DNA from: Paraspadella gotoi | Lineage: Eukaryota; Animalia; Chaetognatha | Direction of reading: 5' to 3' | DNA length: 64,000 bases | Assembly (NCBI GenBank): GCA_051294375.1 | Contig: CM119269.1 | Location: 1,318,537-1,382,536 of the forward strand | In this document: one piece after another, positions 9,891 to 58,424 of the stretch | Position numbering within the stretch: position 1 is the first letter of the stretch | How the letters are laid out: every line of letters begins with the position of its first letter | Made by a program: the position numbers and the translations under genes | The notes under the pieces: model-generated | What the model was told of the DNA's origin: nothing | What the model saw: only the letters and a program-made list of their open reading frames with translations | Database searches by the model: none

Positions 9891-10401
9891 TTTCGCGACA
9901 CATCCTGGTGGACGACAACAACAACAACAAAAACTACAACGCCAACAACAGCGCATGGAACCCACGAAGGATCAAAGATTTAGACTTCCCTTTTCCGATT
10001 CGTAGGGTAACGGATCCGTTGGTTTTTTGGAGCCAAGGGTGGGTTAGGGTTGAATTGGTGTCATGACGAAGTCATGGTTCGGCGCCGAATCCAATTCCCT
10101 CCCTCTCTCTCTCTCTCGAAGCGAACGGACGTATGTTCCGAATTTTTTGGAAAATTTTACAAAATCTTTTCGCCTAAAACCTATGTTGATACACATTCAA
10201 GTCCTAAACATATACTGATTTAAAAATACATGGGGGCTGATGCCCATCTGAACTGCCTTTAGACGGTTTCCATACAAGTCATTTAATTACACAAAATTAA
10301 ACATTTATTTCAAATTTAATCTCAGTCTTGAATTAGTGGTCAGTCTCAGCTGACCGAGCGATTTCCAACCTTAACTGGCCAAGATTTTCGACAATATTGA
10401 A

Positions 10402-11931
10402 ATGGCCGCTAAAGGTAAAGAAACAAGTCAGTCTTCTCGTCGAAAAAATGGGAAAACTACAAACGAAGAAACTCAAGAATCTGAAATTTCAGAAATCTCA
10501 GCTCCAGAAGAAAAACTAATTAACGAATTTAAGAACTTGCGTGGCAATCGAAAAGAAACCTTTGTAAAGATGCTGCTCAATTCTAACTATGACATGGTCG
10601 TTGGACAGATTGGCGCCAGACCCAAACAACTGCCAAATTCAGAAGAGCCAAATCCATCACAGGCCACACCATTAAGAATGCCCAAGAACAGCTCCAATCT
10701 GAGAAGGACTGTCGCCATTTCCACTGATCTTCCACCGGAAATAAAAATGTCTCGACCCAAATTGCTTTCTGCAATCGATGAAGCCTTTAAAGAACCTGAT
10801 TGTATAGAGGAGGTAAAAACAACAAAAACCGGTGATATTATCATCATAGCAGCAAATGACAGAAGCTATAACAGTTTACTAAAACCTGAGAACTGGATTC
10901 ATGATTCGTTTACTTTCACACCAAGAATAAACACGCCTAATACAGTTTCTCATTTTGTTTTGATCAAGGGTATTGACCCTGAGTACAGTGAAGAGGACAT
11001 AAAGTCTGCCATTGCGAGTAAGGGCTTTACGCCAAGCGTGATCAAGCGTCTCTTAACTGGACGAACAGGAGAACCTTCGTGGAACGTAAAAGTCACACTT
11101 CACTCACTTCAAGAAAAAGAAAAACTTTTGGAAAAGGGCATCAACATTTTTAAAAAGGTCCATCCTGTGTGTGACTACATCACGGATCGTGTTCTTCAGT
11201 GCTTCCAGTGTCAGTCATTTGGCCATGGCTCTCGCTCATGTACTGCTAAAAACCCTGTTTGCCTTCGTTGCGCTGGTAATCATTCTCATAAAAACTGTGA
11301 TAAACCTTTTGAGGATGCAAAATGTGCTAACTGTGGTGGAAAACACCCTGCTAAACTCGAAGGCCGCCTACTTATCAACAGGCTTACCATATGGAAAAAT
11401 ACATCAGAAAACCGAATCCAAGAAGGAGTCACCTACTCAAGTGTTGCTAGAAATTCTTTGCAGTTTTCTATACAACCCTACGATAAGGGTGCTCTTACTC
11501 ACATAATTTATGGCATCTCCCNNNNNNNNNNTGATCTTGGAATAATAAGCGTCAGTAACTCTGACTTGGTTTCTGCCGTGTCAAAATCAGTTGACACAGT
11601 GGTCAAAGGGCTACCTAACAGAAACACAACAGCCTCTGCCAACTCGTCTGTGCCACAAAGAGATCGGGAACATATCCAAATAGGGAGTTCTTCTTCACAA
11701 ACAAATGCAAAAGGCTCTTCAGAATCCCAAAGTCAGCAAATCGAATCTCAAACAAATGTCCCTCTCTCTACTCAGGAAATTGTCAGTAATTGGGAAGATG
11801 ATTGGAATGCATCCGAATCTCAAAGTCAAGATCAAGAACAAACCAATGAACGAAGAGGCATGTTAGAATCAAACGGTCAGCCACGTCTCAATCTTATGCC
11901 TAAGAAAAAACAAGGAAAAAATACAAAATAA
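10402..11931 (+). CDS. LINE ORF1 gag-like nucleic-acid-binding protein
   Basis: 509-aa ORF (contains an N gap) with CFQCQSFGHGSRSC, CLRCAGNHSHKNC and CANCGGKH zinc knuckles, preceded by a pre-C2HC-like IKGID segment. Confidence 0.85.
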   Translation: MAAKGKETSQSSRRKNGKTTNEETQESEISEISAPEEKLINEFKNLRGNRKETFVKMLLNSNYDMVVGQIGARPKQLPNSEEPNPSQATPLRMPKNSSNLRRTVAISTDLPPEIKMSRPKLLSAIDEAFKEPDCIEEVKTTKTGDIIIIAANDRSYNSLLKPENWIHDSFTFTPRINTPNTVSHFVLIKGIDPEYSEEDIKSAIASKGFTPSVIKRLLTGRTGEPSWNVKVTLHSLQEKEKLLEKGINIFKKVHPVCDYITDRVLQCFQCQSFGHGSRSCTAKNPVCLRCAGNHSHKNCDKPFEDAKCANCGGKHPAKLEGRLLINRLTIWKNTSENRIQEGVTYSSVARNSLQFSIQPYDKGALTHIIYGISXXXXDLGIISVSNSDLVSAVSKSVDTVVKGLPNRNTTASANSSVPQRDREHIQIGSSSSQTNAKGSSESQSQQIESQTNVPLSTQEIVSNWEDDWNASESQSQDQEQTNERRGMLESNGQPRLNLMPKKKQGKNTK

Positions 11932-11938
11932 TTCCAAA

Positions 11939-14900
11939 TGGAGCCTGAGAAACTGCCCGTCGCAATCCTAGATATAATACAAATGGTCACCCTAAACGAT
12001 TGGTTGAACTCTTAAACATTATAAGTTTCTTTAAGAATCATTATAACCTTTTCCTAATTTGTAATGATGTAAGATGTAAGCAAGAAGATATGTTTTGCTT
12101 CAAAGGCTATAAAGTATTTTTAAAAGAATCTAATTCCTTAGCAGGAGGAGTAATGATAGGTGTTCCTAATAATCTACCTGCAAGTATTTTAAGCCCTGAC
12201 ACAGACCTTAAAGAATGTTTATTTGTTGAAGTTCTTTTAAAGGAAACAAAAAGATTAATAATTGGCACTGCATATAATCATCCTTCTTGTAATCTAAATG
12301 AAGACATATTTAAATTCTATTCAAATATATCAAACAGATCTAATGTTATTCTCAGTCTATTTGCAGGCGACTTAAACTCTTCTCACGGTCTACTCGGCGG
12401 GAAGATTTGATACACCACAGGGTGAAGACTTACTCTCCTTCATTTCTAAATACCAACTCTTTCGGGTACATGGTGACTCACCAACCTTCATCAGCAAATC
12501 TAACGGCGAAGCAAATGTTCTAGACGTTGTCTTAACAGTAGGTCACCTGTCGCCAAAATAGACTCATGTAGTGTACAGTCTTGGATGATGTCGGTTCAGA
12601 CCATTTGCCAGTTCTGACAACATTCTCCTTTAAATATGAAAAAACGGTGATCCACTTAAAGAAAACTCATTGGCAAAAATTTCGAGAATCTATTAAGAAT
12701 GGAGTTGTCAATTTAAAACCAGAAATCTTCACACTTTCAGAACTTGATACAAAAATAAAACACTTTTCTAATTTGATAATAACCTCTTACAATGAAAACA
12801 CCGAGCTTAAAGAAATGATCATAAAAGACGGAATTCAAATAGATAAATTTACACAAAGCCTCGTAAAAAAGAAACGACGATTATCAAGACAAATATGTAA
12901 CTATAGAAAAAGTGGGTTTTCGGCTCCACCTGAGATAAAGAAAGAATACAATTACGTTTGTAGAAGACTAAGATCTGCTAACAAAACATGTTTGTCAAAT
13001 TATTACAAGTCAAAAGTAAAACAAATTTATGAAGAAAAAGACGCAGCCAAAAAATGGAAATTAATAAACAATATCACGAATTATTCTCCAAATTCCCCTC
13101 CAGATGCAATGCTTCGTAGAGGTGATGGTTCTGTAGCAGAAAACAACTCGGCAAACCTTGCTATTTTTGCTGATAAACTCGAAAATATGTTAGGTGCATC
13201 ACCTGTGCTTCCTGAAAGACAAGAATGGGCAAATAAAATAACTAACAACGTTTCACAATACCAATCTTATCTTTTCCCTGATACAAACAACAGAAGATAT
13301 GATCCTGATTATGAAACATTTGTAAATGAGAGTTTAGAAATGGAAAATATAGTTGAACTAATCAAAACGTTAAAAATCCACTCAGCAGCGGGATCAGATA
13401 ACATAAACCATAAAATGCTCCGAAATTTACCTCTAGAGGGTCTGACAGCTCTACAACACATATATTCTTGCTGTCTTCGATTTGGATACTTCCCAAAAGC
13501 ATGGAAATTGGCTCTAATCCGAATGATCCCAAAAACAGGAAAAGATGCAACCAATTCGAGAAATTATCGATAAGTCTTCTATCTTCACTGGCTGCAGGAA
13601 TATGTTGAGAGATTGATCCTTCCTGGTCTCATAAGCATGCCTAAAATCTCCAGGAGCAAGAACCCCTCTTCAATCAGGTTATCGGAAAGGTCGTTCTGCT
13701 CCAAAAATATTTTCCAGTTGGTTGAAGATGCTCACCGATGCTTCAAAACAAAGGTGCAACTATCCTAGTCACTGCTTGATTACAGTAAAGCTTTCTGACA
13801 ACATATGGCATGACGGTCTCCGTTACAAATTAATTAAAGTGGCATTTCCAAAGACATGATCCGTTTTGATAAATTCATTCTGACCAACACGAATCTTCAC
13901 AAGTCATCAGCAGCAGGTGAACAATCACGTGAAAGTCCTGATTCTCGAGGCTCACCCCAAGGAGCAGTTTTTAAGCCCCGAATTGTTTTGCCCCTTCTAT
14001 GTTGGTTGACCTTACCAATCTCATGTCCAATACTCTAAAACCAACAGAGTCTTCAAGCCTCCATTGAAGGTTGTATGATCAAGATGAAGAACCTGACCCA
14101 AATATCCCACTGAATCAACCCGCTTTTGAGGGCGGCCCTCTTGACGTCTTGAGAGTGCTGCCAAATACGCCAGACGCAGTTCAAGCATCTGGGCCTTCGT
14201 CAAAAAGATCCTCACCTTGCTGTAAAAGCTTCTTCAACGAAATCTTCATAAACTTGAAAGATGGTGTTTTAATGTGGTCTTGGATCTGTGGCCGAAAAAT
14301 CAAAATTGTATCCTATAACTCGTTCTATTTAATCTTTTTTAATTTTGAAATTAATTTGTTCTTTTTTGGTAGTAGAATTCTTATGTGTAATAGCATTAAA
14401 TTTTAGGAATGTATTATAGACAAAACGCCTCACATGGGACTAACCATGTTAATGAGTTATTTAAAAAATCAAAAATGTAAATTACTTAGCCATTAACAGA
14501 ATATCACGTTTGTATCAGCTATTTCAAAGCCATTATTGTTTCTCTTTTTTTATATTCATCATCCTTGCTTAATTTCGGCTGGAGCTTATCATGGCTTAAG
14601 TTTGACTGTTTACAGCTGAGAGCTATTACGAATCTTTACAAAACCTCCCAATTCATATCCCTAACGATGCAAACCTTAGAATAGTGCAGGCCAAATACCA
14701 CTTTCCAGATCTAATCTATCAAAAAATTTTGCTGTACATAGATTAAAACGATTGTTCAGAAAATCATTTGTTTGACCACACTGTAAATTGTATTACCATT
14801 AATACTATTCGTACAAATATGCATCACCAATAGAAAAAACTACTGTGGCCGATCTCTTGGAAAGAAAAAAGACCGTCTGCATAAATTGCAAAATGGAAAG

Positions 14901-17697: not shown

Positions 17698-20600
17698 AAA
17701 TAAAAACGGTAAAACAAGATCGTGAATCAGATCTACAGAACCGGTCTTGGGTTTCTTTCGTAAGTCCAGGGATGGTATATCTTCTATAATAATGAATGGA
17801 ATGACTTGATATGCATGTGTGGGATGGAACTCGGTATGGTCTATTCCCCATTCTATATTTAAAAAAAAAATTGGAAGTTTTGTTTTGTGCATCAGTTTTC
17901 AACAAAAATTTTATTTGCATACTGTGACCAAAATACTTGAATGTTATAATTTATTTTCTCAGTAAAAATTAATATAAGATTACTGGGTCTAATGGTAAAG
18001 TGTTAAGCTGAAAAAAATAGTATTTATCAAAAAATCACATTTTGTAGTAATATATAAAAAATAATTATATAGCTAATGATAAAAAAATTGTAATTTGATT
18101 ACATGATTAAAGTTGCCTATCAATCAACTATTAATTCCTATAACAAAAAGTAGAACTAGTAAATAAAAATAACTAATAAGCTAATTATTATAACTATTAT
18201 TACATAAATTAATAAAAACTATTTTTTTAGCTTAAGGGGACCAAGTGAACAGGGGGGGTAATAAGCTGAAAACATAATGTTTGGCCCTTTAACTTAAGCT
18301 GGGTCTGACCATATAATTTTTTTTTATAATCATTTGGGAAAGTAGTTAAAAAATTCGATAAAATCAGCGAGCTTAATTTTCTTTAAAAAATCGGTAAGAA
18401 GAAAATCTTTTTCAAGTTTAAAATTTTTTTTTCCAAAAAAGGGTAAGATCTAATTTTAAAAAGATTTTCAGCTTTTATCACAAAAATTTCTAAAAAAAAA
18501 ACTAGGAATGAATCAAAATTTAAGGTATCGACTGATTTTATTTAAACTTTCTTTTCAATTCAAATGATTCTGTTAAGTCGCGGTGCACAGTCTCGTGGAA
18601 AATTTTATTNNNNNNNNNNNNNNNNNNNNNNNNNCACGCTCTTCTCATGCAAAATTCTTTATCTTGTGACCAAAATTTTTCTCATGTCTGATGACTAACG
18701 ATATGCTCTATATTCGGAACAGAACATAGGCTGTTTTCGTACGCATACTGTTTTTAAATCAGTAAGATCGCAAGCATAATTCAAAAATAAAAAAATTCAG
18801 GCTAAAAGCTAGCGTTAAAACGTGTGACAAAAGATTTCATACCATCGGTCATGTAATTAATGCTGGGTTAAACGGTGTGTTGATTAAAAAAAGATGTTGA
18901 TATTCAGAACGTCAATTTACAACTAGAGATCAGAGCGTATCGTTTTAAACCTCATTATTTTGTTTCATGTTGAGAAAGGATAAAGTTAACGAATAACAAT
19001 AACCAAATATCTCTAAATCAGAACTGACTTAACTATTGCTTTTTCTTATTGTTTTGATATTCGATGTTGTGGACTGGCATAGACTTGCTTGCGTTTTGAA
19101 GAAAGGATTCTAAGAAATATGTTTGGAAAAAGCATCTTCTTAGAACTTTAGGTATCAGAACGTTTTTATAAAATATTCCAATTTAGTTATACTGATGTTT
19201 TTAATTAATTATAAAGTTGTATATATTAATTTTCGAAAAAAAACATGTGTCTCATGGAGAATTATAAATATGAGATTACTTTGAGAAAGTTAATTTTGCA
19301 TTTTATAAAATAATAAATTTTCTTCCAATCGATTTTGCAGCAAGTCTGATGTTTTTATTTTTGATATTTATTTTAAGTGGCAAAATTATATTCTTCTGTG
19401 AGCATTGGGTTCTGAAAAAATTCTCCTCCTTTTTTATTTCTTGGCGGTTTTTCTTCTGAGCCTATAGTATCTAATATATAGCGAATTTATTACTATATAC
19501 CAATAATAGACTAATATTTATGAATCATTGTTTTAATAATAATACTGTAATGTGCTGTAATGTAATGTAAGTGAGCAAAAGTTCTGAAATTGATGCAGAA
19601 ACAAAGAGAGCGACTAGAGAGAGTGAGGCAAAGAGTGAGAGCTAGAGAGCAAAAGCTAAAGTGAGAGATAGAATTCTGTATTTGTTGCATTTTAAAGATG
19701 CGAAGGTTGCGACGTCTCGAGGCTAATCACAAATATTTTTTTTCGTAACCAGGAGACGTCAGATAAGAATTTTTTTTTTTCTGAAATTAAAAGAGACCAA
19801 TTTGAACAATAACGACAAATAGAGAGGTTAAACGATTAAACGTATGAGTATTTGAGCAAGAAAAAAATTTTGCACTAATGCGCACTAAAATTCAAAATTC
19901 AAAACAATTAAGGATCATTGCGGAACATCAAATTGAAAAGTATTAAAATATATCAATGAAAATCATAAGGAATATTAGCATTACACTAGGCCATTTGCCA
20001 TTTTTTTTTTTTAGTCATAGACCAGAAACTTGGCAAATGAAAAAAAAAAAGTACAATAACTATCATTTAGAGTACTACATTTAACTAGGCTATTGCCTCT
20101 TTTTTTTTTAAGCCTCATCGACAGAAACCTTGTCAATTTGTTTTTAACTGATCATAAAATAGAAAGGATAATTACCAGATTAAAAATTAATTGGAATTAC
20201 CCTTATTTCCTAATTATTATATTCTTAAGTGACCAATCGCGGCACTAAGTAAGGAAGAAGAGAGAGAAAGACAGAAAGAGAGTCAAGCAACTCGTTATGA
20301 AACCAACAAAAGTGCTAGACCAAACAGTAATGAACTCTATTGGTAAAACAACTTATCCACGAGCTCTTAATTTCGATAGTCGATCCAGATTCAGCTAGAC
20401 TTATGGATATTGAATATATTAATAAGTGCAGTTTGATTTATCAAATACAATATTTATGTATTGCAAGGACTACCAGAGGCCCAACCTATTACTAAAAATA
20501 TATAACCATAATATTCAACAAATAAGGAAGTTACTGTATCATTGAAAAAAAATGACCCATCAAAATATTAGCACTGATAAATATGGAAAAAAAAAACTTT

Positions 20601-22527
20601 TGATAGTAACAATTATTCTACAGGAAGGTTTACTAAAACCCTCTTGAGTACAACGTAGCAAAATTTAAAGAAAAAAATTTTAAATATATTAGAGCTAAGC
20701 AAGTTTCCTTAAAAAAAAATTTTTGACCAATTTTTAAGTGGTTTAAGATTATTTTTTGAAAAAAATGCTAAAAATGCGGCCAATAGCCAGACAATCCAGG
20801 CAACGTCCTATTAAAATCCTAAAGCCATTTATCCTATAAATGGAAAAAAGTTATCCATGCTACAGATTTATGACATTTCTAGGTTCCGGTACTGTAGCTA
20901 AATTATAATTGAAGATTAGCTTTAGGTCCAAATGAAAAACTCGACCGATGATACTAACGAAAATAAAAAAAAAGTTTGATAGACTTGCGTGCTCTTAATC
21001 TCGGCGCATCCTAAAAATAATATTTAAAAATACAAATTAAATTAATAAATTAAAAATTGATCCTTACTTTTCTATTTAAAACCTACTTCTAGCTAGCTTG
21101 ATTCCATTGAAACTTGAATTTCCAGCTCAATGAACTAGTTTTTTAATCACAGACAAAAATTTCAACTCAATTGATTCATCCAAACATAAGTCATAAGACT
21201 TTAAAGGTTACTGGAGAAAGGATGGACCAGACAGACATCATGAACAGACCAAAATGTTTTGAAGTTTTTTATATCAAACGACAGTCTTAAACAGAGGAGA
21301 TTTTCCGATTGCATTGTTTAAGAGGATATGTGGTTTCACATGTTAAAGAATAAACCAATCTTCTTTTTAGTTTGAATCTGTCAGCCATTTTATGTATTTA
21401 ACTGTATCTTGAGAGCTTTAAGAGATTTCTGCATTAATTTTTCTACATAAACATTCAGGGGAAATGCCCTCGGATGAGGAACACAATAAAAAATGAAAAA
21501 ATCAATACTTGAAATTTTTTTTAACTGATAGTTTTTTCTACGAGACTGTACATCGCGTCTTAATTGGATTGAAAATAAAACCTTTGAAGTAATATAAATA
21601 TAAAAAGAAGAGAAAAGATTCTGTACTTTTTGCAAATTTTAATTGTTTATAATTAAGGAATCAATATATATTATAATACATTTAAGGCGATGATATGAAT
21701 ATTAATTAATAATTATTACAGTTTGTGTTTTCTGTAAGAATATAATTTAGGTTTGATTTGTCTGCTCTTAAAATAAATATTAAAAATATAAAAAATATTA
21801 GTCTTGTAAATTCCTTTGTTCAATGAGGCTTTAAAAACTAAAATTGTAGGCTTTGTACAATAAAAAATAAAATTTGGAATTTAGTAAAAAAAATACTTTC
21901 TAATGCAAAAATAAAATAATAAGATTATAATAAATATTTAGGTTAGGGTCAAACTAAATGTTTTTTTCATAATTATAAATTGTTTTCCGCTACAAATTAA
22001 GAGATAAAAATTTTTTTGCTACTTTTCCGCGTTGCCCAAAAAAAAATTAATGACTATCACCATTTAAATCTCCTTTGATGGATAGACCCTTAAGCTTAAT
22101 GATATCCTTTTTATCACTGGATCCCCTTAATAGTACCATTATACCCAGTTAATCTTCGATTAATTTTTACTGAAAAAAACCAAATTATATCCTTCTCAAG
22201 AATTGTTTTCACATTTTTGTTGAAAAATTATGCTCAAAACAAAACTTCAATTTTTTTTTTTTTGAAAAAATATAGACTGGTGGAATAGACCATACGAGTT
22301 CCATCCCACACATTGCATATCAAGTCCATTTCCATTCATTATTAACAGAAGAATACCCCATCCCTGGACTTATGAAGGAAAGCCAAGACCGGTTCTGTAT
22401 AAGTGTGGAAAACGTGAATCAAGAAAATAAAACGATTCGTGACGAAGCAAAAAATTTTTAAGACTAAAAATTCCGGCTCAAATTTTTTAAACGAAAGAAA
22501 TTGTCCAAATTTTGTTCCAAAAAAAAC

Positions 22528-24357
22528 ATGTCTGAGGGAATCGTCCTTTTCAAAATATGCCACTTACCACTAGGAAGGCGCTTTTCCGAATTTACCGACG
22601 ACTGCAGACAAAAGAGGTCAGTGGAAGAAGTGCTCGAAAAATATCTGGACATGGATCTCGTTTCGGTGACTCTCTACGCCAGCGAAATGTTATACGACTT
22701 GAGCTCATACAACAAATTAACACCGGGCTGTGAAACTTAGTGCCAAAGCCGCGGCTTTTTTTTACTACTGAGATACTAAAATTAGAGAAGCGGGATCAAA
22801 CGCAGACCAAAGCAGGCCATTTAGCGTAAGTGTCGTCCGAAAATCTATTTCGATGTTTTTTCGTTAAAGCAAATTCATTGATAGGGAACGCCAGGTACAC
22901 TGGTAGTGAATAAACGTAGACTGTGAGAGTCTTGCATTGACATGCTTACAGGGTTCTGCTTATTTTTATTTTCTAGTACAAGGGCATCTCTGCATATGAA
23001 CGTCTTAAACCGAAGTCCAAAAGTCAGTGACCGAATAGCTTATATATTGAATGAATGATTATTTTATACATGGTATTTACTAATTTGATATTTAAAAAAC
23101 AATTGTATTGCTCCCAATTTTTTTACAGCAAATCTGAAAATAAAACTGAAGAAGGAATGGCAAAAAATGAAAGCCTATTTCCGTAATCAGTTTGAGCGAA
23201 CTGTTTTGCGATGCAAGAGGAGCTAATCGAAGTTCCTTGATTCACCATGGACTTCGTTTTAGTCGAAGCAAGGAAGGAAAATCCCTACTTTCTGACCTTT
23301 GAAAAAATGCCGGAATTTCTGGTAATTCAAAGCAACAGCAAAAGGAAGACATAAGCTCGTCACTGCTATTTGAGTAAAGATCCGAACCGGAAACTGTTTA
23401 CAAGCGATGGGCCTGCGAAAACGGATTTTTGTAACCTGGACTGAAGTGAGTTGCATTTACTTAACCTACATTTTGATTATAGAATTGCGTATCTATTAAA
23501 ATCTTTGCAAATTACTTGTTTCACTATTTCCTATTTTAATTTTATGAAGGATTATGCGTGGACTAAAACCCACCAACCGTTCCATCAGTGGCCATTGGTG
23601 CCGGAGCGCAAGTTCATTCGCCTCCCAACCCAAAGGTCCGGGGTTCTTAGCCCGGTGGTCGTCTGACAGTTAAGAGGACGGGACGCTTAACCCGCCTGTA
23701 CATGGTGTTACAGCTCGACCTGATCCCGCACACATCGTCACGGAGCTGCTCATATTGTTGTACTACGTTCTCATCACTAACTCCTAAAAAAATTACCTGT
23801 CCTCTTCAGATCATCAACTATCTCCGTAGGCTGAACAGGAAAGGTTGGGGAAGGACCATTTTTTGCTAGCGATGGGGACACAAAGTTATATTAATCAGCA
23901 TTTTTTTAACAAATAGGGATAAGACTCCGAAGAGTAGAAATGTATGTTCGGATAGGTGATACAATTGGGGAAAAAGGTCTTATAGGCGGCACCTTCATGT
24001 CATGAATATAATTTTAATAATACTTAATTTAAAATATTATTTTTGTTAAAAAACGGGATTGATTTTTCAGGGTTCAATCCGTTATTGATTCGCTCTACTC
24101 TCAAAAAGCGAACTTGAAAAGGTTTACTCCGAGTAGGCCATCCTCGCTGTTTTCGGAGAGCACTGCCAACACTACAGCCAGCGGTGTTCGAGTTTTTGGC
24201 CAAAGAGAAGAAATATCCCGAAAAGAGTCAAAATCATAGACGACATCTTTTTTAGCCTGAAAAAGAGGATTTTTGACGCAGAAGAGGATGGATGAATGAA
24301 CAAGCAGTTACAAGCGCTTATGTTGGCGAGGACGAGGAGGATCAGCGTCTTAAATGA
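22528..24357 (+). pseudogene. Frameshifted copy of paralog 2 (probably artefactual)
   Basis: Colinear with 30056-31786 but with many indels. Confidence 0.7.
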
Positions 24358-24594
24358 ACCTTTTTCTTTTCGTAAATTTAGTAATTTTATTTTTTAAAAC
24401 TTTCCCAGATTCTGTATTCTGTATGATGCGGGTATTTCCACTTTCTTTCTTTCATAATGATACAAATTTTAAAATTATTAAAATTTGTAAAATTGTTTTG
24501 ATAAATTTACCATTCCATGCTTTTTTACATAGCTGCGGTACATTTGCTTTTAGTATTTACCCTCCTAAATTAAACTCCACAAAAATCCGATAAA

Positions 24595-25750
24595 ATGAGT
24601 TTCAAAATTAATGAAGTCCGTCCTACCGGGCGCGATGGTTGATATCTTTGGATCTGGTTGGAAAAGAGTCCTTAGGATTTGCACCTACTCCAAAAAAGGG
24701 CCTCCCATCCACAACCTCCTGATGATTAAAGACAAGGGAAGACGTTGAGGGAATATCTGAAAAATACCTTGATATGGAATTTTTAAGCGTCAGCATCTAT
24801 GCGTCTGAAGCTGCTTACGATTGGAATCTGCTGGACAATATGAAAGAAGCTGTGGGGTTTTGGGAAATCAGCAGGCCTTTATTTAGCAACCGGAAAGACG
24901 AAAAATGAGCGAAGCCATCAGAAGCGCGAACAAAGATCGAGTCTAGGACATTAAATATTTTCTCTTTCATACCCATATATATGGTATACACCATATGATT
25001 AATTTATTTTTTTTTATCTTAAGCATGCTTTCTAAGCGCAATACTTGAATCTGACAAAGCTTTAATGAAGGCTACGTGTCTTTACGAATTCGGAATTGTA
25101 CAAAATTAAAGACAAGAGGCTTCATGCGCGTCTTTTTTCAATTTCATTTGATTTCGTCAAAATGGACGCTAAAAAGAGAAAGAGAAAACCCTTACTTTCT
25201 TACGATAGAGAATGGTACGACTAGTATCATCATCCAAAGCTGCTGAGGACGAGGACACAGTTTCGCCACTGTATTCTAATTCGACTCCGATCGAACCTTA
25301 TTTCAGTTCCCTTTGGAGATTGACGTCTGCAAGGACGATCAAGTAAGTTTTTAGTCGGATTCTTCTTATCAGCAGATTCCGACTCTATAAATTATAATAT
25401 CACTTGTCGTCCATCGCGTAAATCATTTAGATTCATATCAGAAACAGGATTATTGATAAATAAAAAAAGCTAACAGTGAGATGCCCGCGTCCCAATGGGT
25501 CATCACAAAGCACGCGGCTGTTGCCATAAGAGCAATTATTTTTATTATTATTCTAATATTTGGCATATAAGAGATTCTAACCTGTCACTTTATAAATCCC
25601 AACACTGCTATAAACTTACATTTTTTAAATTTTCTGTTCCCAGATTTCAAGATGTTAATAAACCAGCTAGTATTTCGACAAATGAACTTTAAAAGGGTTA
25701 CTCCGTGCTGCCTGGAGGCGATCATTGCCAACGCATTTCAGCAAGCGTAC
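24595..25750 (+). pseudogene. Frameshifted partial copy of paralog 3 (probably artefactual)
   Basis: Colinear with 32006-33118 but with many indels; lacks the last exon. Confidence 0.7.
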
Positions 25751-28700
25751 GTATGCACTGTGCTTTAGTGGAGTCAGGAGATGGTATAAAACAAATTGAG
25801 TGGTAACATTATCAAATACATATTCTCAAACTGATGCATTGGCAAAGCGGTGAACGGAGGTAGGTAAACAGTATGTCCCAATGGGTACTGTCTGTTAAGA
25901 AAACGCTCACTGCTCCTTATTACCGGATCTCAAAAACTTTAATTCATTATTAATGAATATGCGCATAAGTAGGACCATTTATAGGATACCTAAGTTTTAA
26001 AAATTGATTAAATCTTTTAAATCTTTTATTTAGATTGCCAGACAGTAAGAAACTATTATATATTTTAGCTCCTTTATAATGCAGTCATTATTTATTAATA
26101 AATTTTCTACTGTGGAGGACCGTCGACCGAGGACTATGGTCGACGATTCGACCGGCCTTTTTCGCCCCGTTGGGTCAACTGATATGACGACTTTCTCTCT
26201 CTTCTCTCTCTCTCTGGACTTCATTCTTCTCCTCCTTATAAGGTTGACACCCGTTGGACGTATTCTCTCGTCTAATAATGACCTTTCAATTGTATGAACT
26301 ATGGTCGGACGGTTCGACCGGCCTATTTCGTCCCCGTATGCGGTCACTTGATATGGACCTACGTTTCTCTCTCTTTCTCTCTCTTCTGACTCATGCTCTC
26401 CTCCTTATAAGTTGACACCGTTTGGACGATATTCTTCTCTAATAAACCTTCATTTTTATGAACTATTCTCACATTGGTACATCGTAATAAAATGTATATT
26501 ATCATAAAACATCGTCTCCTTTTCCAACGTCGCTTATTACTACTTACCTTATTTCATATACTTTTTTAATTGATTTTAATAATAATTTACTTGAATGCAA
26601 ATAGGTATTGGTGACTAAAAATCCACCAAGTCCGCTTCAACAACTCAGCGGCCATTGGTGGCCGGAACGCAAGTCATTACATACACACACACAATCCGGA
26701 AGTTCCTCAGCCCCGCCTGTGGTCAGTTCTGGCAGTTAACGCAGGAACGGGCGCGCTTTTTAACCCGCCTGTAACCGGTTTACAGCAACCTGATCGCGAA
26801 GCTCAGGGACTCTTTATATATTGAACGGTTCTTGTCTATTAAACACTTTATCAATAATTACTTGCTCTCTTCATGGTGAGCGCCGACTTCCAACATCAAC
26901 AGCCAACGAACAACACTTTCAGTGCAACATGCCTCAACCTAGGCGATGCACTTTCCGCCCCACACACATCAGGCGCATGCCCTCAACTTTGGGTGTACGA
27001 ACTTCCACAACAACCAACAATTCATTGAAGAGACGCAAACGACTTCTCCCTACGGGAGGGGGGATAGTATGGTGGACTAAAATCCACCAACCGTTCATCA
27101 GCGGCCATTGGTGCCCGGAGGCAAGTTCATTCGCCCCCATCCCAACCCAAAGGCTCCGGAGTTCTAGCCGGTGGCGTCTGGGCACGTTATGAGGAGACGG
27201 GGCGCTTAACCCGCCTGTAACTCGGTGTTACAGCCTGATCGAAGCTCAGGGACTGCTTATATTGAACGGTTCTCGTATTACCAGCTTCATTTCAATATAT
27301 TACTGTACTCTTCAATAGCACACACGCCATTTTTGTTCTGCCTTAATGCATCTTCCCAATCCGCTCGCACAAGCTTCACAAATAATAAAATCTATAAATA
27401 TATATATAATCTAAACATTATTTGTTATTCATTATTTATGTACTTTTTTAATATTATTATTTTTTTTATTTATGCACTTTATTTATACAAATTAAAATTT
27501 GAATAATTTATATCTATTTAAATAATTTTTCCACATAATTTTTTAAATATAATTTTATTTTTTAAAATAAAAAATATTCTAAATTTAAAAAAGTTGAGAA
27601 TGAAGGAATTATTTTAAATTAATGTTCTGCAAAGAAAAATGATAAAACATCGAGTGAAGTTCAACATATAGTTTCATAAATGGTTAAGATCCTCTCTACT
27701 TTGTAAATACTATCATTATGGTACCTAACATTTATACTAGGCTATTGCCTCTTTTTTTTTTTAAGTCATCGACAGAAACTTGTCAATTTTTTTTTTTTAA
27801 CTGATCATAAATAGAAAGGCATAAATACCAGATTAAAATTATTGGAATTACCCTTATTCCTAATTATTATTATTCTTAAGTGAAATCGCGGCACTGGTTA
27901 AGGAAGAAAGAGAGAAAGACAGAAAGAGAGTCAGCAACTGTATGGACAACAATAGTGACCAACAGTAATGAACTCTATGGTAAAACTTATCGATCTCTAA
28001 TTTTTCGATCCAGATCATAGACTATGGATATGAATATAATTAATAAGTGGTTGATTTATCAATAAATATATGTATTGCAGGACTACCCAAGCCCACCTAT
28101 TACTAAAATTTAAACCATAATATTCACAAATAAGGAAGTTATGTATCATTGAAAAAATGACCCATCTAAATATTAGCACTGATAAATATGGAAAAAAACT
28201 TTTTGATAGTAACAATATTTTACAGAAGTTTACAAACCCTCTTGAGTACAAGTTAGCAAATTTTAAGAAAAAATTTAAAATATATTAGAGCTAAGCAAGT
28301 TTTTTAAAAATTTTGACCCAATTTTTAAGTGGTTTAAGATTATTTTTTTGAAAAAATTGCTTAATGGGAATAGCCAGACATCCAGGCAACGTCCTATAAA
28401 ATCCTAAAGCATTTATCCTATAAATGGAAAAGTTATCCATGTACAGATTTATGACATTCTAGGTTTCCGGTACTGTAGTAAATATAAATTGAAGATTAGC
28501 TTTAGGTCAAATAAAAATCGACCGTATATAACGAAAATAAAAAAGTTTTTGATAGACTTGCGTGGCTCTTAATCTCGGCGCATCTAAAAATAATATTAAA
28601 AATACAAATTAAATAATTAAATTAAAATTGATCTTTACTTTTTCTATTAAACCTACTTCTACTAGCTTGATTCCATTGAAACTTGAATTCCAGCTCAATG

Positions 28701-30055
28701 AACTAGTTTTTTTAATCACAGACAAAATTTCAACTCAATTGATTCATCCAAACATAAGTAATAAGACTTTAAAGGTACTGGAGAAAGGATGGACAGACAG
28801 ACATATGAACAGACAAATGTTTGAAGTTTTTTATATCAAACGACAGCTTAAACAGAGGAGATTCCGATTGCATTGTTTTTTAAGAGATATGTTGTTCACA
28901 TGTTAAAGAATAAAAACAATTTCTTTTTAGTTTGAATTCTGTCAGCATTTATGTATTTAACTGTATCTTGAGAGCTTTAAGAGATTTTGCATTAATTTTC
29001 TACATAACATTCAGGGAGTAATGCCCTCGGATGAGACACAATAAAAAATGAAAAAATCATACTGAAATTTTTTTTTTAACTGCATAGTTTTTTCTACGAG
29101 ACTGTACATCGCGTCTTAATTGGATGAAAATAAAACTCTTTGAAGTAATATAAATATAAAAGAAGAGAAAGATTCTGTACTTTTGCTAATTTTTAATTGT
29201 TATAATTAAGAATCAATATAGTTATAATATACATTTAAGGGATGTATATGAATATTAATTAATAATTATTACAGTTTTGTTTCTGTAAGAATATAATTTA
29301 GGTTTGATTTGGTCTGCTCTTTAAATATATAAAATATAAAAATATTAGTCTTGTAAAGCCTTTGTTTCAATGAGGCTTTAAACCTAAAATTGTAGCTTTG
29401 TACAATAAAAAATAAAATTTGGAATTTAGTAAAAAATACTTTCTAATGCAAAATAAAATAATAGATTATATAAATATTTAAGGTAGGGTCAACTAAATGT
29501 TTTTTTCATAATTATTTAAATTTTTGTTTCCGCTACAATAAGAGATAAAAATGTTTTTGCTACTTTCCCGTGCCCAAAAAAATTAATGACTATCACCATT
29601 TAAATTCCTTTGATGATAGACCCTTAAGCTTATGATATCATTTTTATCACTGGATCCCCTTAATAGTTTACCATTAGACCCAGTAATCTTCGATTAATTT
29701 TTACTGAAAAAACAAATTATATCCTTCAAGAATTTTGGTCACATTTTTGTTGAAAAATTATGCTCAAAACAAAACTTCAATTTTTTTTTTTTGAAATATA
29801 GACTGGGGAATAGACCATACCGAGTTCCATCCCACACATGCATATCAAGTCATTCCATTCATTATTACAGAAGATATACCCCATCCCTGGACTTATGAAG
29901 GAAAGCCAAGACCGGTTCTGTATAAGTGTGGAAACGTGAATCAGAAAATAAAACGATTCGTGACGAAGCAAAAAAAATTTTTAAGACTAAAAATTCCGGC
30001 TCAAATTTTTAAAACGAAGAAAAATTGTTTTCCAAATTTTTGTTCCGAAAAAAAC

Positions 30056-31786
30056 ATGTCTGAGTGGAAGTCGTCCTTTCAAATATGCACTTACACTAGG
30101 AAGGGCTTTCCGACATTTACCGACGACTTGACAGACAAAGAGTCAGTGGAAGAAGTGCTCGAAAAATATCTGGACATGGATCTCGTTTCGGTGACTCTCT
30201 ACGCCAGCGAAATGTTATACGACTTGAGCTCCATACACAAATTAACACCGGGCGTGAAACTTAGTGCCAAAGCCGCGGCTTTTTTTACTACTGGAGATAC
30301 TAAATTAGAAGAAGCGATCAAACGCAGACCAAAGAGGCCATTTAGGTAAGTGTCGTCCGAAATCTATTCGATGTTTTTCGTTAAAGCAAATTTCATTGAT
30401 AGGGAAGCCAGGTACACTGGTAGTGAATAAACTAGACTGTGAGAGTCTTGATTGAATGCTTACAGGGTTCTGCTATTTTATTTTCTAGTACAAGGGATGA
30501 ACGTCTTAACCGAAGTCCAAAGTCAGTGACCGAATAGCTTATTTATTGAATGAATGGATTATTTTATAATGGTTTTACTAATTTGATATTTAAAAAAACA
30601 ATTGTTTGCCCAATTTTTTTACAGCAAATCTGAAAATAAAACTGAGGAAGAATTGCAAAAAATGAAAGCCTATCCGTATCAGTTTGGCGAACTGTTTGCG
30701 ATGCAAGAGGAAGCTAATCGAAGTTCCTTGATTCACCATGACTTCGTTTTAGTCGAAGCAAGGAAGGAAAAATCCTACTTTCTGACCTTTGAAAAAATGC
30801 CCGAATTTCTGGTAATTCAAGCAACAGAAAAGGAAGACATAGCTCGTCACTGCTATTTGAGTAAAGATCCGAACCGGAAACTGTACAAGCGATGCCTGGA
30901 AACGGATCTTTGTAGACCTGGACTGAAGTGAGTTGATTTAACTTACCTACATTTTGATTATAGAATTGGTATCTATTAAAATTTGCAAATTACTTGTTTC
31001 ACTATTTTCTATTTTTATATTTTATGAAGGATTATGGTGGACTAAAACCCACCAACCGTTCATCAGCGGCCATTGGTGCCGGAGGCAAGTCATTCGCCTC
31101 CCAACCCAAAGGTCCGGGGTTCTAGCCCGGTGGTCGTCTGACAGTTAAGAGGGACGGGGCGCTTAACCCGCCTGTAACATGGTGTTACAGCCTGATCCGA
31201 AGCTCAGGGACTGCTTATTTTGAACGGTTCTATCACTAACTCATAACAATAATTACTGTCTCTTCAGGATCATAATATCTCGTAGGCTGAACAGAAAGGT
31301 GTGGGAATGGACCATTTTTTGAGGAGGGACCAAAGTTATATATGATTTTTTTAACAAATAGGGATAAGACTCCGAAGTAGAATCGTATGTTCTGATAGGG
31401 ATACATATTGGGGAAAGGTCTATAGGGGCACCTTCATGTCATGAATATAATTTTAAAATACTTTAATTAAAATATATTTTTGTTAAAAACGGGATTGATT
31501 TTTCAGGGTTCAATCCGTTATTGATCGGCTCTACTCTCAAAAGGAACTTGAAAAGGTTTACTCCGAGTGGCCATCGCTGTTTTCCGGAGATCACTGCCAA
31601 CACTACAGCCAGCGCGTGTTCGAGTTTTTGGCCAAAGAGAAGAAATATCCCGAAAGAGTCAAAATCATAGACGAAATCTTTTTTAGCCTGAAAGAGGATT
31701 TTGACGAGAAGAGGATGGATGAAATGAACAAGCAGTTACAAGCGGCTTTGTTGTGCGAGGACGAGGAGGATCAGCGTCTTAAATGA
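30056..31786 (+). CDS. Putative permuted papain-like His/Cys protein, paralog 2
   Basis: Exons 30056-30345, 30625-30927 and 31507-31786 join in frame. Motifs LIHHDFVLVE..YFLTFEK and YSEWPSLFSGDHCQHYSQRVFEFL. Confidence 0.75.
31036..31266 (+). mobile_element. tRNA-like plus twister-like composite repeat (copy in intron 2 of paralog 2)
   Basis: Near-identical to 33799-34029, with different flanks. Confidence 0.75.
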
Positions 31787-32005
31787 ACCTTTTTCTTTCG
31801 TAAATTAGTAATTTTATTTTAAAACTTTCCCAGATTCTGTATCTGTATTGATGCGGTATTTCCACTTTCTTTCTTTCATAATGATACAAAATTTTAAAAT
31901 TATTAAAATTTTGTAAAATTGTTTTGATAAATTTAATTTCATGCTTTTTAAAGCTGTAATTTGCTTTTAGTTTTACCTTAAATATAACTCCACAAAATCG
32001 ATAAA

Positions 32006-35000
32006 ATGAGTTCAAAATTAATGAAGTCCGTCCTACCGGATGGTGATATCTTTGGATCTGGTTGGAAAGAGTCCTTTAGGATTTGCACCTACTCCAAAAA
32101 GGGCCTCCCATCCACAACCTCTGATATTAAAGACAAGGAAGACGTTGAGGAATATCTTGAAAAATACCTTGATATGGAAATTTTAAGCGTCAGCATCTAT
32201 GCGTCTGAAGTGCCTTACGACTTGGATCTGCTGGACAATATGAAAGGAGCTGTGGGGGTTTTTGGGAAATCAGCGGCCTTTATTGCAACCGGAAAGACGA
32301 AAATGAGCGAAGCCATCAGAAGCGGAACAAAGATCGAGTAGGACATTAAATATTTTCTTTTTCATACATATATATGGTATACACCATATGATTAATTTAT
32401 TTTTTTTTATCTTAAGCAGCTCTAAGCGCAATACTGAATCTGACAAAGCTTTAATGAAGGCTACGTGTGCTTACGAATTTCGGGAATTGTACAAAATAAA
32501 GAAAGAGGCTCATGCCGCGTCTTTTATTCATCATGATTTCGTCAAAATGGACGCTAAAGGAGAGAAAGGAAAACCCTACTTTCTTACGATAGAGAAAATG
32601 TACGACGATATCATCATCCAAGCTGCTGAGGACGAGGACACAGTTCGCCACTGTATTCTAAGTTCGACTCCGAATCGAAACCTTTTTCAGTTCCCTTTGG
32701 AGATTGACGTCTGCAAGGACGGCATCAAGTAAGTTTTTAGTCGGATCTTCTTATCAGCAGATTCCGACTCTATAAATTATAATACTCCTTGTCGGTCCAT
32801 CGGTAAATCATTTAGATCATATCAGAACATCGGATTATGATAAATTAAAAAGCTAACAGTGAGATGCCCCGTCCCAATGGGCATCACAAGCAACGCGGCT
32901 GTTGCCATAAAGCAATTATTTTTATTATTTTTATTCTAATATTTGGATTAAGAGATTCTAACCTGTCACTTATAAATCCAACACTGCTATAACTTACATT
33001 TTTTAAATTTCTGTTCCCAGATTTCAAGATGTAATAAACCAGCTATATTTCGACAATGAACTTCAAAAGGGTTACTCCGTGCTGCCTGGAGGCGATCATT
33101 GCCAGCATTTCAGCAAGCGTACGTATGCACTGTGCTTTAGTGGAGCTCAGGAGATGGTATAAAACAAATTTTGAGTGGGGAACATTATCATAAAATACAA
33201 TATTCTCAACTGATGCATTGGCAAAGCGGAACGGGGTAGGTACAGTATGTCCCAATGGTACTGTCTGTTAAGAAAAGCTCACTGCTCCTATACCGGATCG
33301 AAAAACTTTAATTCATTATAATGAATATGCGCATAAGTATGGACCATTTTATAGGATACCTAAGTTTTAAAAATTGATTAAATCTTTTAAATCTTTTATT
33401 TAGATGCAGGACAGTAAGAAATATTATATATTTTTAGCTCCTTTATAATGCAGTCATTATTATTTAATAAATTTTCTACTGTGGAGGACGGTCGACGACG
33501 ACTATGGTCGACGGTTCGACCGGCCTTTTCGTCCCCGTTGGGTCACTTGATATGACCGACGTTTCTCTCTCTTTCTCTCTCTCTCTGACTCATGCTCTCC
33601 TCCTTATAAGTTGACACCGTTGGACGATATTCTCTCTCTAATAAACCTTTCATTGTTATGAACTATTCTCACATTGTACATCGTAATAAATGTATATTAT
33701 CATAAACATCGTCTCCTTTTCCAACGTCGCTATACTACTTACCTTATTCATATTACTTTTTTAATTGATTTAATAATAATTTATTGAATAAATAGTATGG
33801 TGGACTAAAATCCACCAACCGTTCATCAGCGGCCATTGGTGCCGGAGGCAAGTCATTCGCCTCCCAACCCAAAGGTCCGGAGTTCTAGCCCGGTGGTCGT
33901 CTGGCAGTTAAGAGGGACGGGGCGCTTAACCCGCCTGTAACTCGGTGTTACAGCCTGATCCGAAGCTCAGGGACTGCTTATATTGAACGGTTCTGTCATT
34001 AACACTTATCAATAATTACTGTCTCTTCAATAGCAACCATTTTGTTCTGGCTTAATGATTCAATCGCTCACAACTTCAAATAATAAAATTTAAATATAAA
34101 ATTAATAAACATATTTTTATTATTTTTTGTATTTTTTTAATATTTATTTATTTATTTTTTATTTATGCACTTATTTTATACAAATTAAAATTTGAATAAT
34201 TTATATCTATTTAAATAATTTTTCACATAATTTTTTAAATATAATTTATTTTAAAATAAAAAAATTATCTAAAAATTAAAAAAGTGAGAAATGAGGAATT
34301 ATTTAAATTGAATGTTCTGCAAAGAAAAATTGATAAAAATATTCAACATATAGTTTCATAAATGGTAAGAACTTATCTTTGACATTGTTATCTAAGAAAT
34401 AGGTTTAATAACACAGTTCCACACAATATGTAAAAGTTAACCGACAGTACCATTGGAACACACTGTACGTACCCCGTGTCCGTTCGCGAGTGACACTAAA
34501 AAATCTTTACTATACTTTAAATATTTAATAAACATAATTCATAAATATATCATTAGTTGGAGAACTACTTGACGTTTTTTATGTATATGTTTCATTTCAT
34601 GTTTAATTCTTTTACTATTCTTTGTTTAATTTTTTATCTAACACAGTAAAATTGGTAAAAAAAAAATTTTAGGCAAGTATAACCTTGCCAGTTACAGACG
34701 ATGCCATAGAGGTTTTCAAGCACATAAACCTAGTAAGAGTAGTTCATCACAGGTAATCCCTACAGTTTACAAAAAATCATAACTCTAGAACTGAAGAACC
34801 GAAAAAATATTTCCGAGTTGTCCACTTTGATCATATGTTAGGAATTCGGTGAAGGACTTGCGTTGGGATTAAAGTTTCGATATGAGTCGCGTTTAAATAA
34901 AATATATAAAAAAATATCAGCAATGCAAAAATTTTCAAATAATATATAATTTATACATAGTATCAATTCGTTAGTGATTAAACGTTTAGTATTTTGACTC

Positions 35001-35216: not shown

Positions 35217-35952
35217 AAACTTAATTATCATCATTTTACAGGGATTTCAAATGAAAGGATCGAATACTGTGGCTTAAGCATTTGTTATAGCAACTTCAGA
35301 TTTTGCACTCTGGTAGAAAAATCGCTGACGTTTTTTATTTTCCAATCCCCAGTATTCCAGCTTGCTTACTTTCTTAGTTATGTGCTTATGAATGGCATGG
35401 TCGAATTTTAAAAAAGCAAATTTTTTTTCATTTGAATAGGACTTCCTGTTATAAGATATATTTTCACGAACAAAAATGAAATGTATGAAAATTTGGGGTA
35501 ATCTTATACATATAGTCATTTAAGTATTTGTCTGAGCAATCAGAATGTCAAAAACTATTTCACAGCCATAATGACAGCCCTTTCCATTTTATAGTTTTTT
35601 ATAGTTAAAACCTATAGAAAAAAAATTTCAGCTTTGAAAAAAAAATGGAAAAAAACATTGATCTGGCAAGCGCCTGTTACCTTACTAAACCTTGAAATAT
35701 AAATGAGAATTTTTTTTCATACTACCAAGACATTATACTAACTAATGAATATAAAAAAATTATAATATTTGTCACAATTTTTTTCACAACTACTTCAAAA
35801 TTAAATTATTTAACAAAGTTTGGAAGATAAGCAGAAGCGACCTAGGGAATCGTGGTGCAGGCTTACTTGTGTCCCTGGACCCTATCCACCAGAAGATGAC
35901 AGCTAGTCAATATGCTCGCTGGAGGTGAGATTCTATAGAGGTAGCTGAGCAT

Positions 35953-36495
35953 GTGTCTGCACGGCTGCGTAGCCGTGACGCCCGCGGCTCCCTACGTGAG
36001 CAATTGGTGAAACCGAAAGATAAATATTCCAGACCGAAAAATATCAGGAGCGTCTACTGGGCGGCCTGTGCAGGGGCGGGCAACGAACTCTGCACAGCAG
36101 CATACGTGGGCGAGACAGGCAAGTCCCTCACAGACCGTTTCAACAGCAAACGAAACCTTATCGTGATACCCGTGGACACTTCCTGTCGGCAATCGCTGAG
36201 CACAAAGCGAATACTGGCCATGCATTTAGAGAGTAGCTGTCTCGTGCTGTCCCATGACCCAAACTGGTTCACAAGAGGTATTAGAGAGGCTATTTACATC
36301 AAAGCCCTCGAACCTTCTTTGAATCGTGATGGAGGACGATTCGACCTCCCTCCAGGCTATGATTCGCTTATCAAAAGCGTGGTGGAGGCCCCGCCACCAC
36401 CACGACCGCACAATGATTCCCCTGTCTCCACTCAACGAGACAGGCGGAGACCCTTGCGCAGGCAATGGGCAAACGATGCCTCTCCCTTGATTTGA
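35953..36495 (+). pseudogene. GIY-YIG endonuclease fragment of a Penelope-like element
   Basis: Motifs as above; no RT domain recognisable upstream. Confidence 0.85.
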
Positions 36496-57902: not shown

Positions 57903-58366
57903 CTTTCTCTCGCTCTTCTCTCTCTCTCTCTCTCTCTCTCCTCCTCTCTCTCCTCGTCCCTGCTCCGTTTTCAAAGTCCCCCACGAAAAAAAAAAAGACA
58001 ACGTGTCCTTTTTTTCACTTCGGTCCCCGCAAACATTTTGCGACAGAAAAAAACAAAAAAGAAGAAAGGGGGAAAAAAAAGAGATAGCTGAGAAAAAAAG
58101 CTGCGGTTTTTCCACGTCAATTTATGGTCGCTATTTCCCTGACTTTCTCGCTAAGCCTTTCCTTCCTCCCAGTGAAAAAGATAGCTCGATGTCCAGGAAG
58201 AAATTTTTTATTTACTTATTGATTTATTATCGACTCGGAAATTGATAATATCGTCTCTTCTATTAAAAAAAAAATCGATTCGTAGGACGAACAAGTGCGC
58301 GGAAAGAAGTTTGGATTGTCGAGAGGGTTGGGCTGGGGGAGGAAAGATGGAAAAAGCGTAGAATTA

Positions 58367-58424
<58 letters not shown>

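Follow-up and report, generated by a model that had tools for sequence, protein, structure and literature searches.

A high-copy 234-bp repeat of the chaetognath Paraspadella gotoi with a tRNA-like module, a type-P5 twister-like motif and features of a solo long terminal repeat

In a 64,000-nucleotide stretch of the Paraspadella gotoi genome (assembly GCA_051294375.1, contig CM119269.1, positions 1,318,537 to 1,382,536, forward strand; here called the window, with all coordinates counted from its first letter), we found that a 234-bp unit at 33796..34029 belongs to a dispersed family of high copy number whose two ends are fixed. The unit likely has the anatomy of a long terminal repeat (LTR) inserted by an integrase, and is closest to the animal Helenus elements, a group of TRIMs (miniature retrotransposons with terminal repeats). 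It contains a degenerate tRNA-like module followed by a permuted (type-P5) twister-like motif. The explanation that we favor, and to which we give about an even chance, is that the unit is a solo LTR of a non-autonomous LTR retrotransposon of miniature size, in which the tRNA-like box would drive transcription by RNA polymerase III (Pol III) and the twister-like motif would cut the RNA in each LTR. Such an element would be a Pol III LTR-retrozyme.

Boundaries, copies and insertion of the unit

The window holds two clean copies of the unit and three further ones:

33796..34029, plus strand: putative solo LTR, 234 bp, termini TA...CA (loose contig ends at both positions, 4/4 runs)
33792..33795, plus strand: left target site duplication (TSD), ATAG (flank comparison; empty-site joint)
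34030..34033, plus strand: right TSD, ATAG (flank comparison; empty-site joint)
31033..31266, plus strand: second clean copy, 234 bp (11 substitutions and 0 gaps relative to copy 33796)
31029-32 and 31267-70, plus strand: GGAT, TSD of the second clean copy (flank comparison)
23553..27314, plus strand: three indel-ridden copies starting at 23553, 26609 and 27068 (inside a probable assembly-artifact duplicate and excluded from the insertion count)

Contigs of four public runs (X1, X2, X5 and X9) were mapped onto 33650-34180, yielding 13,585, 16,928, 3,150 and 1,020 contigs, respectively. Loose contig ends numbered 148, 143, 108 and 28 at 33796 and 112, 101, 75 and 22 at 34029. Past both ends the contigs entered unrelated AT-rich DNA (flank agreement, ~0.4), and the summed depth rose steeply at the left edge and dropped after 34029. 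The first clean copy thus starts at T33796 and ends at A34029. The dispersed repeat proposed in the first-pass annotation was borne out by these fixed ends and the high depth; its start, given there as 33799, was corrected to 33796 by the contig ends and the second copy. None of the runs is recorded as RNA. X9 has 1020 contigs on the element region and one spliced contig, but contigs do not show strand, start, level or cut site, and these were left out as evidence for a transcript of the element itself.

The TSD was 4 bp long in 2/2 clean copies, and its letters differed between them (GGAT and ATAG). Furthermore, a joint omitting 238 nt (234 + 4) was present in 12, 6, 1 and 0 contigs of X1, X2, X5 and X9. 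This joint is the empty target holding one ATAG, and the contigs carrying it probably derive from other members of the repeat that hosts copy 33796. The summed depth of the element was ~10,000-20,000 times the single-copy depth in X1 and X2. Summed depth is not a copy number, because overlapping unitigs may raise it up to ~30-fold, and the family therefore comprises several hundred to ~20,000 copies in the genome.

The termini check found no terminal inverted repeat in the 234-bp element, so a DNA transposon was rejected. Neither clean copy in the window had a poly(A) or tandem tail, and contig depth over the element showed no 3' bias. Elements inserted by an LTR integrase are marked by fixed ends, a 3'-terminal CA and TSDs of 4 bp (for the 4-bp case, PMC10886601 and PMC4918200, both in part). 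We read the unit as LTR-type because both ends are fixed, poly(A) is absent, the TSD has 4 bp and 33 nt of the element precede the start of the tRNA-like part; these 33 nt may resemble a U3 region.

Longer, variable TSDs and 5' truncation are hallmarks of tRNA-derived short interspersed nuclear elements (SINEs). A tRNA-headed SINE, moved by a long interspersed nuclear element (LINE) via target-primed reverse transcription and with the twister trimming its transcript, would account for the order of the tRNA-like module and the ribozyme, a layout known from the Pol III hammerhead repeats of Schistosoma (PMC6765202, in part; here and below, this marks statements resting on a portion of the source), and a LINE-like element is present in the window. 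However, the 33 leading nucleotides, the missing tail, the 4-bp TSDs and the even depth speak against it, and cleaving the transcript 27 nt past the head would strip the promoter from the RNA that is copied. The element ends largely refute this explanation, which we consider very unlikely. In line with this, the earlier description of a SINE-like or other non-autonomous element, with a tRNA-Gly-like module and then a P5 twister-like motif, holds for the non-autonomous, dispersed character, the two modules and the predicted cut at U33927/A33928, but not for the SINE-like head, since the tRNA-like part lies 33 nt inside an element with fixed ends.

Several observations weigh against a solo LTR. 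Beside the two clean window copies there was neither a primer-binding site nor a polypurine tract, no two-LTR copy was seen in the window or the contigs, the window yielded no helper element, and the unit begins with TA, not the usual TG. End-to-start joints occurred in 1-3 contigs each, at about single-copy depth and with the intervening sequence unread; one of them had a single letter between the copies. A conserved multi-copy internal region would fragment in such contigs, so it could be hidden.

The fact that only solo units were observed and the few end-to-start joints, including the one with a single intervening letter, also fit an element that is complete at 234 bp. It could be a monomeric non-LTR retrozyme, or a parasite of Penelope-like elements or of other machinery producing 4-bp TSDs, amplified from self-cleaving tandem arrays into unit-length circles. 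Monomer-rich retrozyme families exist (10.64898/2026.07.22.740005, in part), and the window holds Penelope-like remnants with hammerhead cores. Against this stand the tandem arrangement and the TSDs longer than 4 bp of animal retrozymes (PMC7229834, in part), as well as the 5'-truncated and partly tandem or inverted insertions of Penelope-like elements (PMC8557442). Moreover, the unit has two fixed ends that both lie away from the predicted cut site, and the joints listed (15/100 and 15/51) included no abundant head-to-tail one. We regard a complete 234-bp element as unlikely.

The tRNA-like module and the twister-like motif

The following features, all on the plus strand, were assigned within copy 33796:

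33798..33817, plus strand: 5' hairpin, 7 bp (6 bp in copy 31033), within the 33 nt upstream of the tRNA-like start (fold)
33817..33825, plus strand: closing stem, left arm, 9 bp (fold)
33984..33992, plus strand: closing stem, right arm, 9 bp (fold)
33829..33901, plus strand: 73-nt module resembling a degenerate tRNA-Gly(CCC), likely serving as an internal promoter for Pol III (ARAGORN relaxed; descriptor)
33829-33835/33894-33900, plus strand: acceptor-like stem, 7 bp (motif check)
33837..33848, plus strand: A-box-like, 2 mismatches to the consensus (motif comparison)
33877-33893, plus strand: T-arm-like (motif check)
33881..33890, plus strand: B-box-like, 1 mismatch to the consensus, GGTTC in the family (motif comparison; contig variants)
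33904..33977, plus strand: type-P5 twister-like motif (phage-validated descriptor; own covariance model)
33904-08/33973-77, plus strand: P5 (descriptor)
33914-15/33930-31 plus 33912/33932, plus strand: P2, 2 contiguous pairs and 1 across a bulged A
33916-17, plus strand: GA, putative general base G33916 and then A33917 (descriptor)
33918-20 with 33960-62, plus strand: T1, 3 pairs (descriptor)
33921..33926, plus strand: GGCGCU, a 6-nt self-complementary segment replacing P1 (pairing computation)
33927-29, plus strand: UAA (descriptor)
33927..33928, plus strand: predicted cleavage step U/A (homology to twister L1; PMC8501958, in part)
33933-34 with 33965-66, plus strand: T2, GC/GC (descriptor)
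33935..33953, plus strand: P3 hairpin, 7 bp, its loop among the most variable parts of the family (fold; contig variants)
33954..33971, plus strand: P4, 5 bp, closing L4 TCCGAAGC (descriptor; phage alignment)

The first-pass annotation had placed the 5' hairpin, the 9-bp inverted repeat of the closing stem, the acceptor-like stem, the T-arm-like part, GA, UAA, P3, P4 and P5 correctly. It had counted four T1 pairs; T1 is best taken as three, since in the P5 consensus of Rfam the stretch from P2 to P1 consists of GA and 3 nt. The folding energy of the entire unit had a z of -2.7 in both clean copies.

At its default threshold of 100, ARAGORN called no tRNA in the element. With a relaxed threshold, Gly(CCC) was reported with scores of 84.2 (copy 33796) and 86.8 (copy 31033). 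A call of any kind at 86 was obtained in 36/2000 shuffles, and at 82 the program miscalled the twister-like part as tRNA-Leu. The descriptor combining acceptor stem and T arm was passed by 86/100,000 shuffles. In the family, the letter at 33881 is G in ~99% of depth, completing the T stem and GGTTC, while C at 33897 (17%) and 33900 (51%) in X1 makes the acceptor stem fully Watson-Crick. A at 33843 (4-13% of depth; 11.5% in X1) lifts one A-box mismatch relative to the box consensus. Each of the frequent family variants in paired regions (33881, 33897, 33900 and 33903) converts a mismatch or wobble into a Watson-Crick pair. By its sequence, 33829-33901 is a decayed promoter candidate and not a tRNA.

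On the plus strand, a run of four T was absent from copy 33796 and occurred once in copy 31033. The 33 nt that lie ahead of the tRNA-like part would be lost from a one-unit Pol III transcript; they could be regenerated from a second LTR. A second A-box-like/B-box-like pair, at 33886-33896 and 33989-33998 (~100 nt apart), overlaps the tRNA-like B box with its first member and is probably incidental.

The twister descriptor specified, in P5 order, GA, three T1 pairs, N/AA, P2, GC and a P4 closing UNNNAAGC. Within the 64-kb window it matched only the two clean copies, and it was passed by 0/200,000 dinucleotide shuffles (both strands) and by 0/360 loci sharing the linear motif order. As a positive control, 31/720 fetched loci passed. 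When 13 descriptor-passing phage loci were compared with Rfam, 11 scored as Twister-P5 above the gathering threshold and 2 as twister-P1 below it. The element has the L1 strands GA and N/AA in P5 order, an L4 UCNNAAGC closed by a 5-bp P4, a T1 of three Watson-Crick pairs and a complementary GC/GC T2. A hammerhead core was not found within the 234-bp unit.

Furthermore, the combination GA-CGG / UCCGAAGC is common to 5/12 aligned phage twisters, partly because it was searched for. The element keeps 17/19 invariant columns of this 12-twister alignment, 15 of which were imposed by the search patterns. The two departing columns form the P4 closing pair, which is A-U in the element and G-C in 12/12 aligned phage twisters; it differs on both sides, yet pairs. 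A covariance model built from the 12 phage twisters alone matched nothing but this family in 64 kb, with scores of 25.9 and 25.6 bits for the copies (E about 1e-3). Both clean copies retain every catalytic-core position as well as T1 and T2, and among the family variants listed (40/96), none above 13% hits them. By eye, the start and end of P3 resemble those of twisters linked to RTE elements in Schistosoma (PMC8501958 Table 1, in part).

An accidental likeness in a GC-rich, hairpin-rich repeat would be compatible with the lack of an Rfam match (see below) and with the predicted minimum-energy fold of the unit, which is a plain multi-hairpin junction. Since neither the shuffles nor the loci with the same linear motif order passed the descriptor, and the phage-only model picked out this family alone, we hold such an accident to be extremely improbable.

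Predicted self-cleavage and the proposed replication cycle

A number of results count against cleavage by the motif. Five stretches were searched against Rfam with E cutoffs of 10, 5 and 1, and the RF02684 positive controls matched; up to E<=10 there was no twister, tRNA or 5S match in the element, even on stretches of 91-106 nt, so the covariance-model check suggested in the first-pass annotation came out negative. The phage-built model aligned the copies in a shifted register. In descriptor-passing phage loci, many of them near-identical, P1 has 6-8 bp (28/31) and P2 has 4 bp (29/31), versus 0-1 bp and 2-3 bp in the element. In a single copy, the 6-nt P1 segment forms at most one G-U pair. 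A decoy hairpin, in which the T1 strand pairs with the P2/T2 strand, was predicted 9.5-10 kcal/mol below the active nested fold of one copy. Unlike in the element, the native fold was the predicted minimum in 11/11 phage controls; folds were compared without pseudoknot scoring, and the controls but not the window copies were refolded around the constraint, which slightly favors the controls. Finally, as to the covariation raised in the first-pass annotation, the contig variants listed (40/96) yielded no phased compensatory pair, and the variation was mostly CpG decay, including G33962A in T1 (12-13% in X1 and X2).

The shifted register, which uses a second TAA at 33938-40, was rejected: it lacks the T2 GC and would open the 7-bp P3. 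Its P2 is also broken by the majority letter at 33942. The reasons why Rfam misses the motif are presumably its P1 segment of just 6 nt, its short P2 and a decoy hairpin that is predicted to be more stable. Since P1 is absent and the decoy is predicted to dominate, self-cleavage of a single copy is uncertain. In type-P1 twisters, P1 was reported to be dispensable (PMC5408937, in part), and a screen starting from type-P1 twisters found P1 and P2 imperfections tolerated on average and pseudoknot defects not tolerated (PMC11662667, in part).

Scans for relatives were negative. A metagenome scan with the core pattern of the element gave at least 120 loci, none with a 5-bp P4, and no relative was found; loose viral scans gave 0/360 loci passing the descriptor, and in a prokaryote genome scan 0 of at least 120 loci passed. 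A phage contig (L467:99-198, minus strand) has two tandem P1-poor twister motifs ~50 nt apart. With its 6-nt link it was considered as a precedent for a short P1 loop and rejected, because it consists of two tandem type-P1 twisters.

These weaknesses could also mean that the unit is a Helenus-type solo LTR with a captured twister relic, no longer cutting or no longer needed, and that the element replicates as an ordinary TRIM with R-region strand transfer. All LTR evidence applies equally to such an element; the missing P1, the short P2, the decoy hairpin and the negative Rfam result suit it, and P3 ends like those of the Schistosoma twisters (PMC8501958, in part, by eye) fit a capture; possible sources include the 5' terminus of an RTE and the tail of a Penelope-like element. 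Arguing against a relic are the unbroken core, T1 and T2 of the two clean copies, the lack of variants above 13% there (40/96 rows), and the P4 closing pair, which changed on both sides relative to phages and still pairs. We judge a relic rather unlikely.

Cleavage could instead depend on two copies. GGCGCU pairs with itself over 6 bp (-8.3 kcal/mol). Of all 4096 hexamers, 140 pair with themselves along their full length and 47 match or exceed the pairing strength of GGCGCU, and 19/60 permutations of its letters likewise self-pair. In the swapped dimer fold, each core gains ~6 kcal/mol. Two copies could, with modest support from modeling, swap halves and share a 6-bp P1 flanked by an active site on either side. 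In amphibians, hammerheads that have one base pair and a palindromic loop need to dimerize in order to cut well (PMC7229834, in part). The shared-P1 dimer was the predicted minimum in only 1/8 pairings, and there with P2 slipped by one, which tells against it; the dimer values are minimum-energy and fixed-structure energies. We tentatively extend the model, as a possibility short of probable, to an animal Pol III LTR-retrozyme gated by a domain-swapped double twister: both LTRs would share the palindromic P1 and be cut together, the clamped monomer would be ligated to a stable circle, and solo LTRs in host transcripts would be silenced by the decoy hairpin.

In the favored Pol III LTR-retrozyme, transcription by Pol III would begin in the 5' LTR, at its tRNA-like module, and run across the internal region into the 3' LTR. 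Each LTR would then be cut by its twister at the U/A step, which may require that the two copies share the palindromic P1. The resulting 5'-OH and cyclic-phosphate termini would be kept close to each other by the 9-bp closing stem and P5, for joining by an RtcB-type ligase; RtcB circularizes retrozyme monomers in vitro (PMC7229834, in part). The circle might then be copied by a Gypsy-type helper, and integrase would insert full or solo-LTR cDNA with a 4-bp TSD. In the model for plant LTR retrozymes, a circular template directly gives solo-LTR cDNA (PMC4918200, in part), which would explain why solo units dominate.

Neighboring sequences and comparison with known systems

The three indel-ridden copies lie in 20059-27697, a duplicate of the adjacent 27709-34378 with a broken reading frame and 355 gap openings versus 173 mismatches in 6352 aligned columns. 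Short-read contigs at 31444-32156 were identical to the clean stretch, with flat depth and no second version at 85% likeness. This duplicate is probably an uncorrected long-read assembly artifact, and 58009-63116 may be a similar one.

A second short, hairpin-rich, high-copy repeat family is present at 32734-32909 (minus strand; middle part replaced) and 6240-6520 (plus strand), with a summed depth ~4000 times single copy in X1. It likewise opens with TATGG or TGG plus a hairpin, and the common terminus may point to a helper shared with the 234-bp family. Further multi-copy repeats are found at 31274-31485, 33241-33377 and 33385-33795 plus 34034-34100; copy 33796 lies within one of these and copy 31033 adjoins another. 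Penelope-like remnants at 35929-36495 and 37242, with related ones at 16861 and 9474 (both minus strand), have a GIY-YIG-like open reading frame (ORF) by eye but no Pfam match, and minimal hammerhead-like cores in a repeated tail. The LINE-like element (10375-13573) has a zinc-knuckle ORF1 and broken endonuclease/reverse transcriptase-like frames (by eye). Paralogous two-exon genes at 6778-7533, 30053-30930 and 32008-32732 form a local family without a Pfam match, and the intron 32338-32419 is spliced out in a contig of run X9. The best CNC bZIP matches were at most 48% identical, as expected of an animal host distant from relatives in the databases.

The first-pass annotation considered the architecture to be without animal precedent. 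This was too strong, since Schistosoma Pol III hammerhead repeats (PMC6765202, in part) and tRNA-bearing Helenus LTRs (PMC10886601, in part) precede parts of it. In the open-access literature searched, we found neither a twister in an LTR element nor a permuted (P5) twister in an animal repeat, nor a pairing of a tRNA-like promoter with a twister, nor a natural dimeric twister.

Animal Helenus elements have tRNA-like LTRs, 4-bp TSDs and solo LTRs (Kojima 2024, PMC10886601, in part). The unit shares with Helenus (TRIMp3) a putatively tRNA-derived module in a short LTR-sized unit, a GGTTC box B, the 4-bp TSD, solo LTRs and the lack of a protein. It differs in its more decayed tRNA part (Gly(CCC)-like, with a degenerate box A and sub-threshold scores) and in starting with TA. 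It ends with CA as LTRs do, and one listed Helenus LTR is also TA...CA. The portion of PMC10886601 covered describes no ribozyme ("twister" has 0 occurrences). Consensus sequences were compared by eye, and part of the supplement, covered by motif search, could hold closer relatives. Helenus-2_SyJa and Helenus-2_SyUm LTRs (gall wasp) have, by eye, a hammerhead-like core behind the tRNA part, which goes unmentioned in the covered text. Ajax LTRs share a 9-nt stretch with the cut-site region of the element, and no L4 was seen in them (PMC10886601 DataS1, in part).

Plant LTR retrozymes (Cervera et al. 2016, PMC4918200, in part) likewise combine a self-cleaving motif in the LTR with a 4-bp TSD and solo LTRs, and a Gypsy helper and a circular RNA template were proposed for them. 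However, theirs is a type III hammerhead, not a twister-like motif, in LTRs of 300-400 bp, and no tRNA-derived promoter is described in that portion of the source. In its proposed working the unit resembles an LTR retrozyme and in its build a Helenus solo LTR, yet we file it under neither, since its ribozyme is of another type than the hammerhead and its two-LTR form is a proposal.

Type-P5 twisters (Rfam RF02684; phage loci L374, L402 and L486 among others) agree with the motif in strand order, GA, UAA, T1, T2 and L4, several with the same T1/L4 letters. The motif departs from them in its palindromic 6-nt P1, the short, bulged P2, the presence of P3, the A-U closing pair of P4, the missing Rfam score and its location in an animal repeat. 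Twisters are known at RTE 5' ends: the T-variants of Schistosoma Perere-3 (Liu et al. 2021, PMC8501958, in part) resemble the motif in their weak P1, animal retroelement host and similar P3 ends, whereas they are type P1, belong to an autonomous non-LTR element, at its 5' end, and cut adjacent to the TSD. Animal non-LTR retrozymes and the SINE-like hammerhead repeats of Schistosoma (PMC6765202, PMC7229834 and PMC7761336, all in part) are also short non-coding repeats with a ribozyme, with a Pol III promoter in Schistosoma, but they have hammerheads (of type I in the animal non-LTR retrozymes), tandem arrays, TSDs longer than 4 bp and no LTR features.

Similar ribozymes in animal repeats may be under-counted, because standard Rfam scans miss this motif entirely. 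A double twister, if true, would be the twister equivalent of the double hammerhead and the natural counterpart of engineered Pol III tandem-twister cassettes for circular RNA; the element permits a cheap test of twisters as obligate dimers. If the element cuts, an LTR-type element would be seen to host a twister and an animal repeat to host a permuted (P5) one, and Pol III TRIMs and LTR retrozymes, which have been described separately, would be joined in one element.

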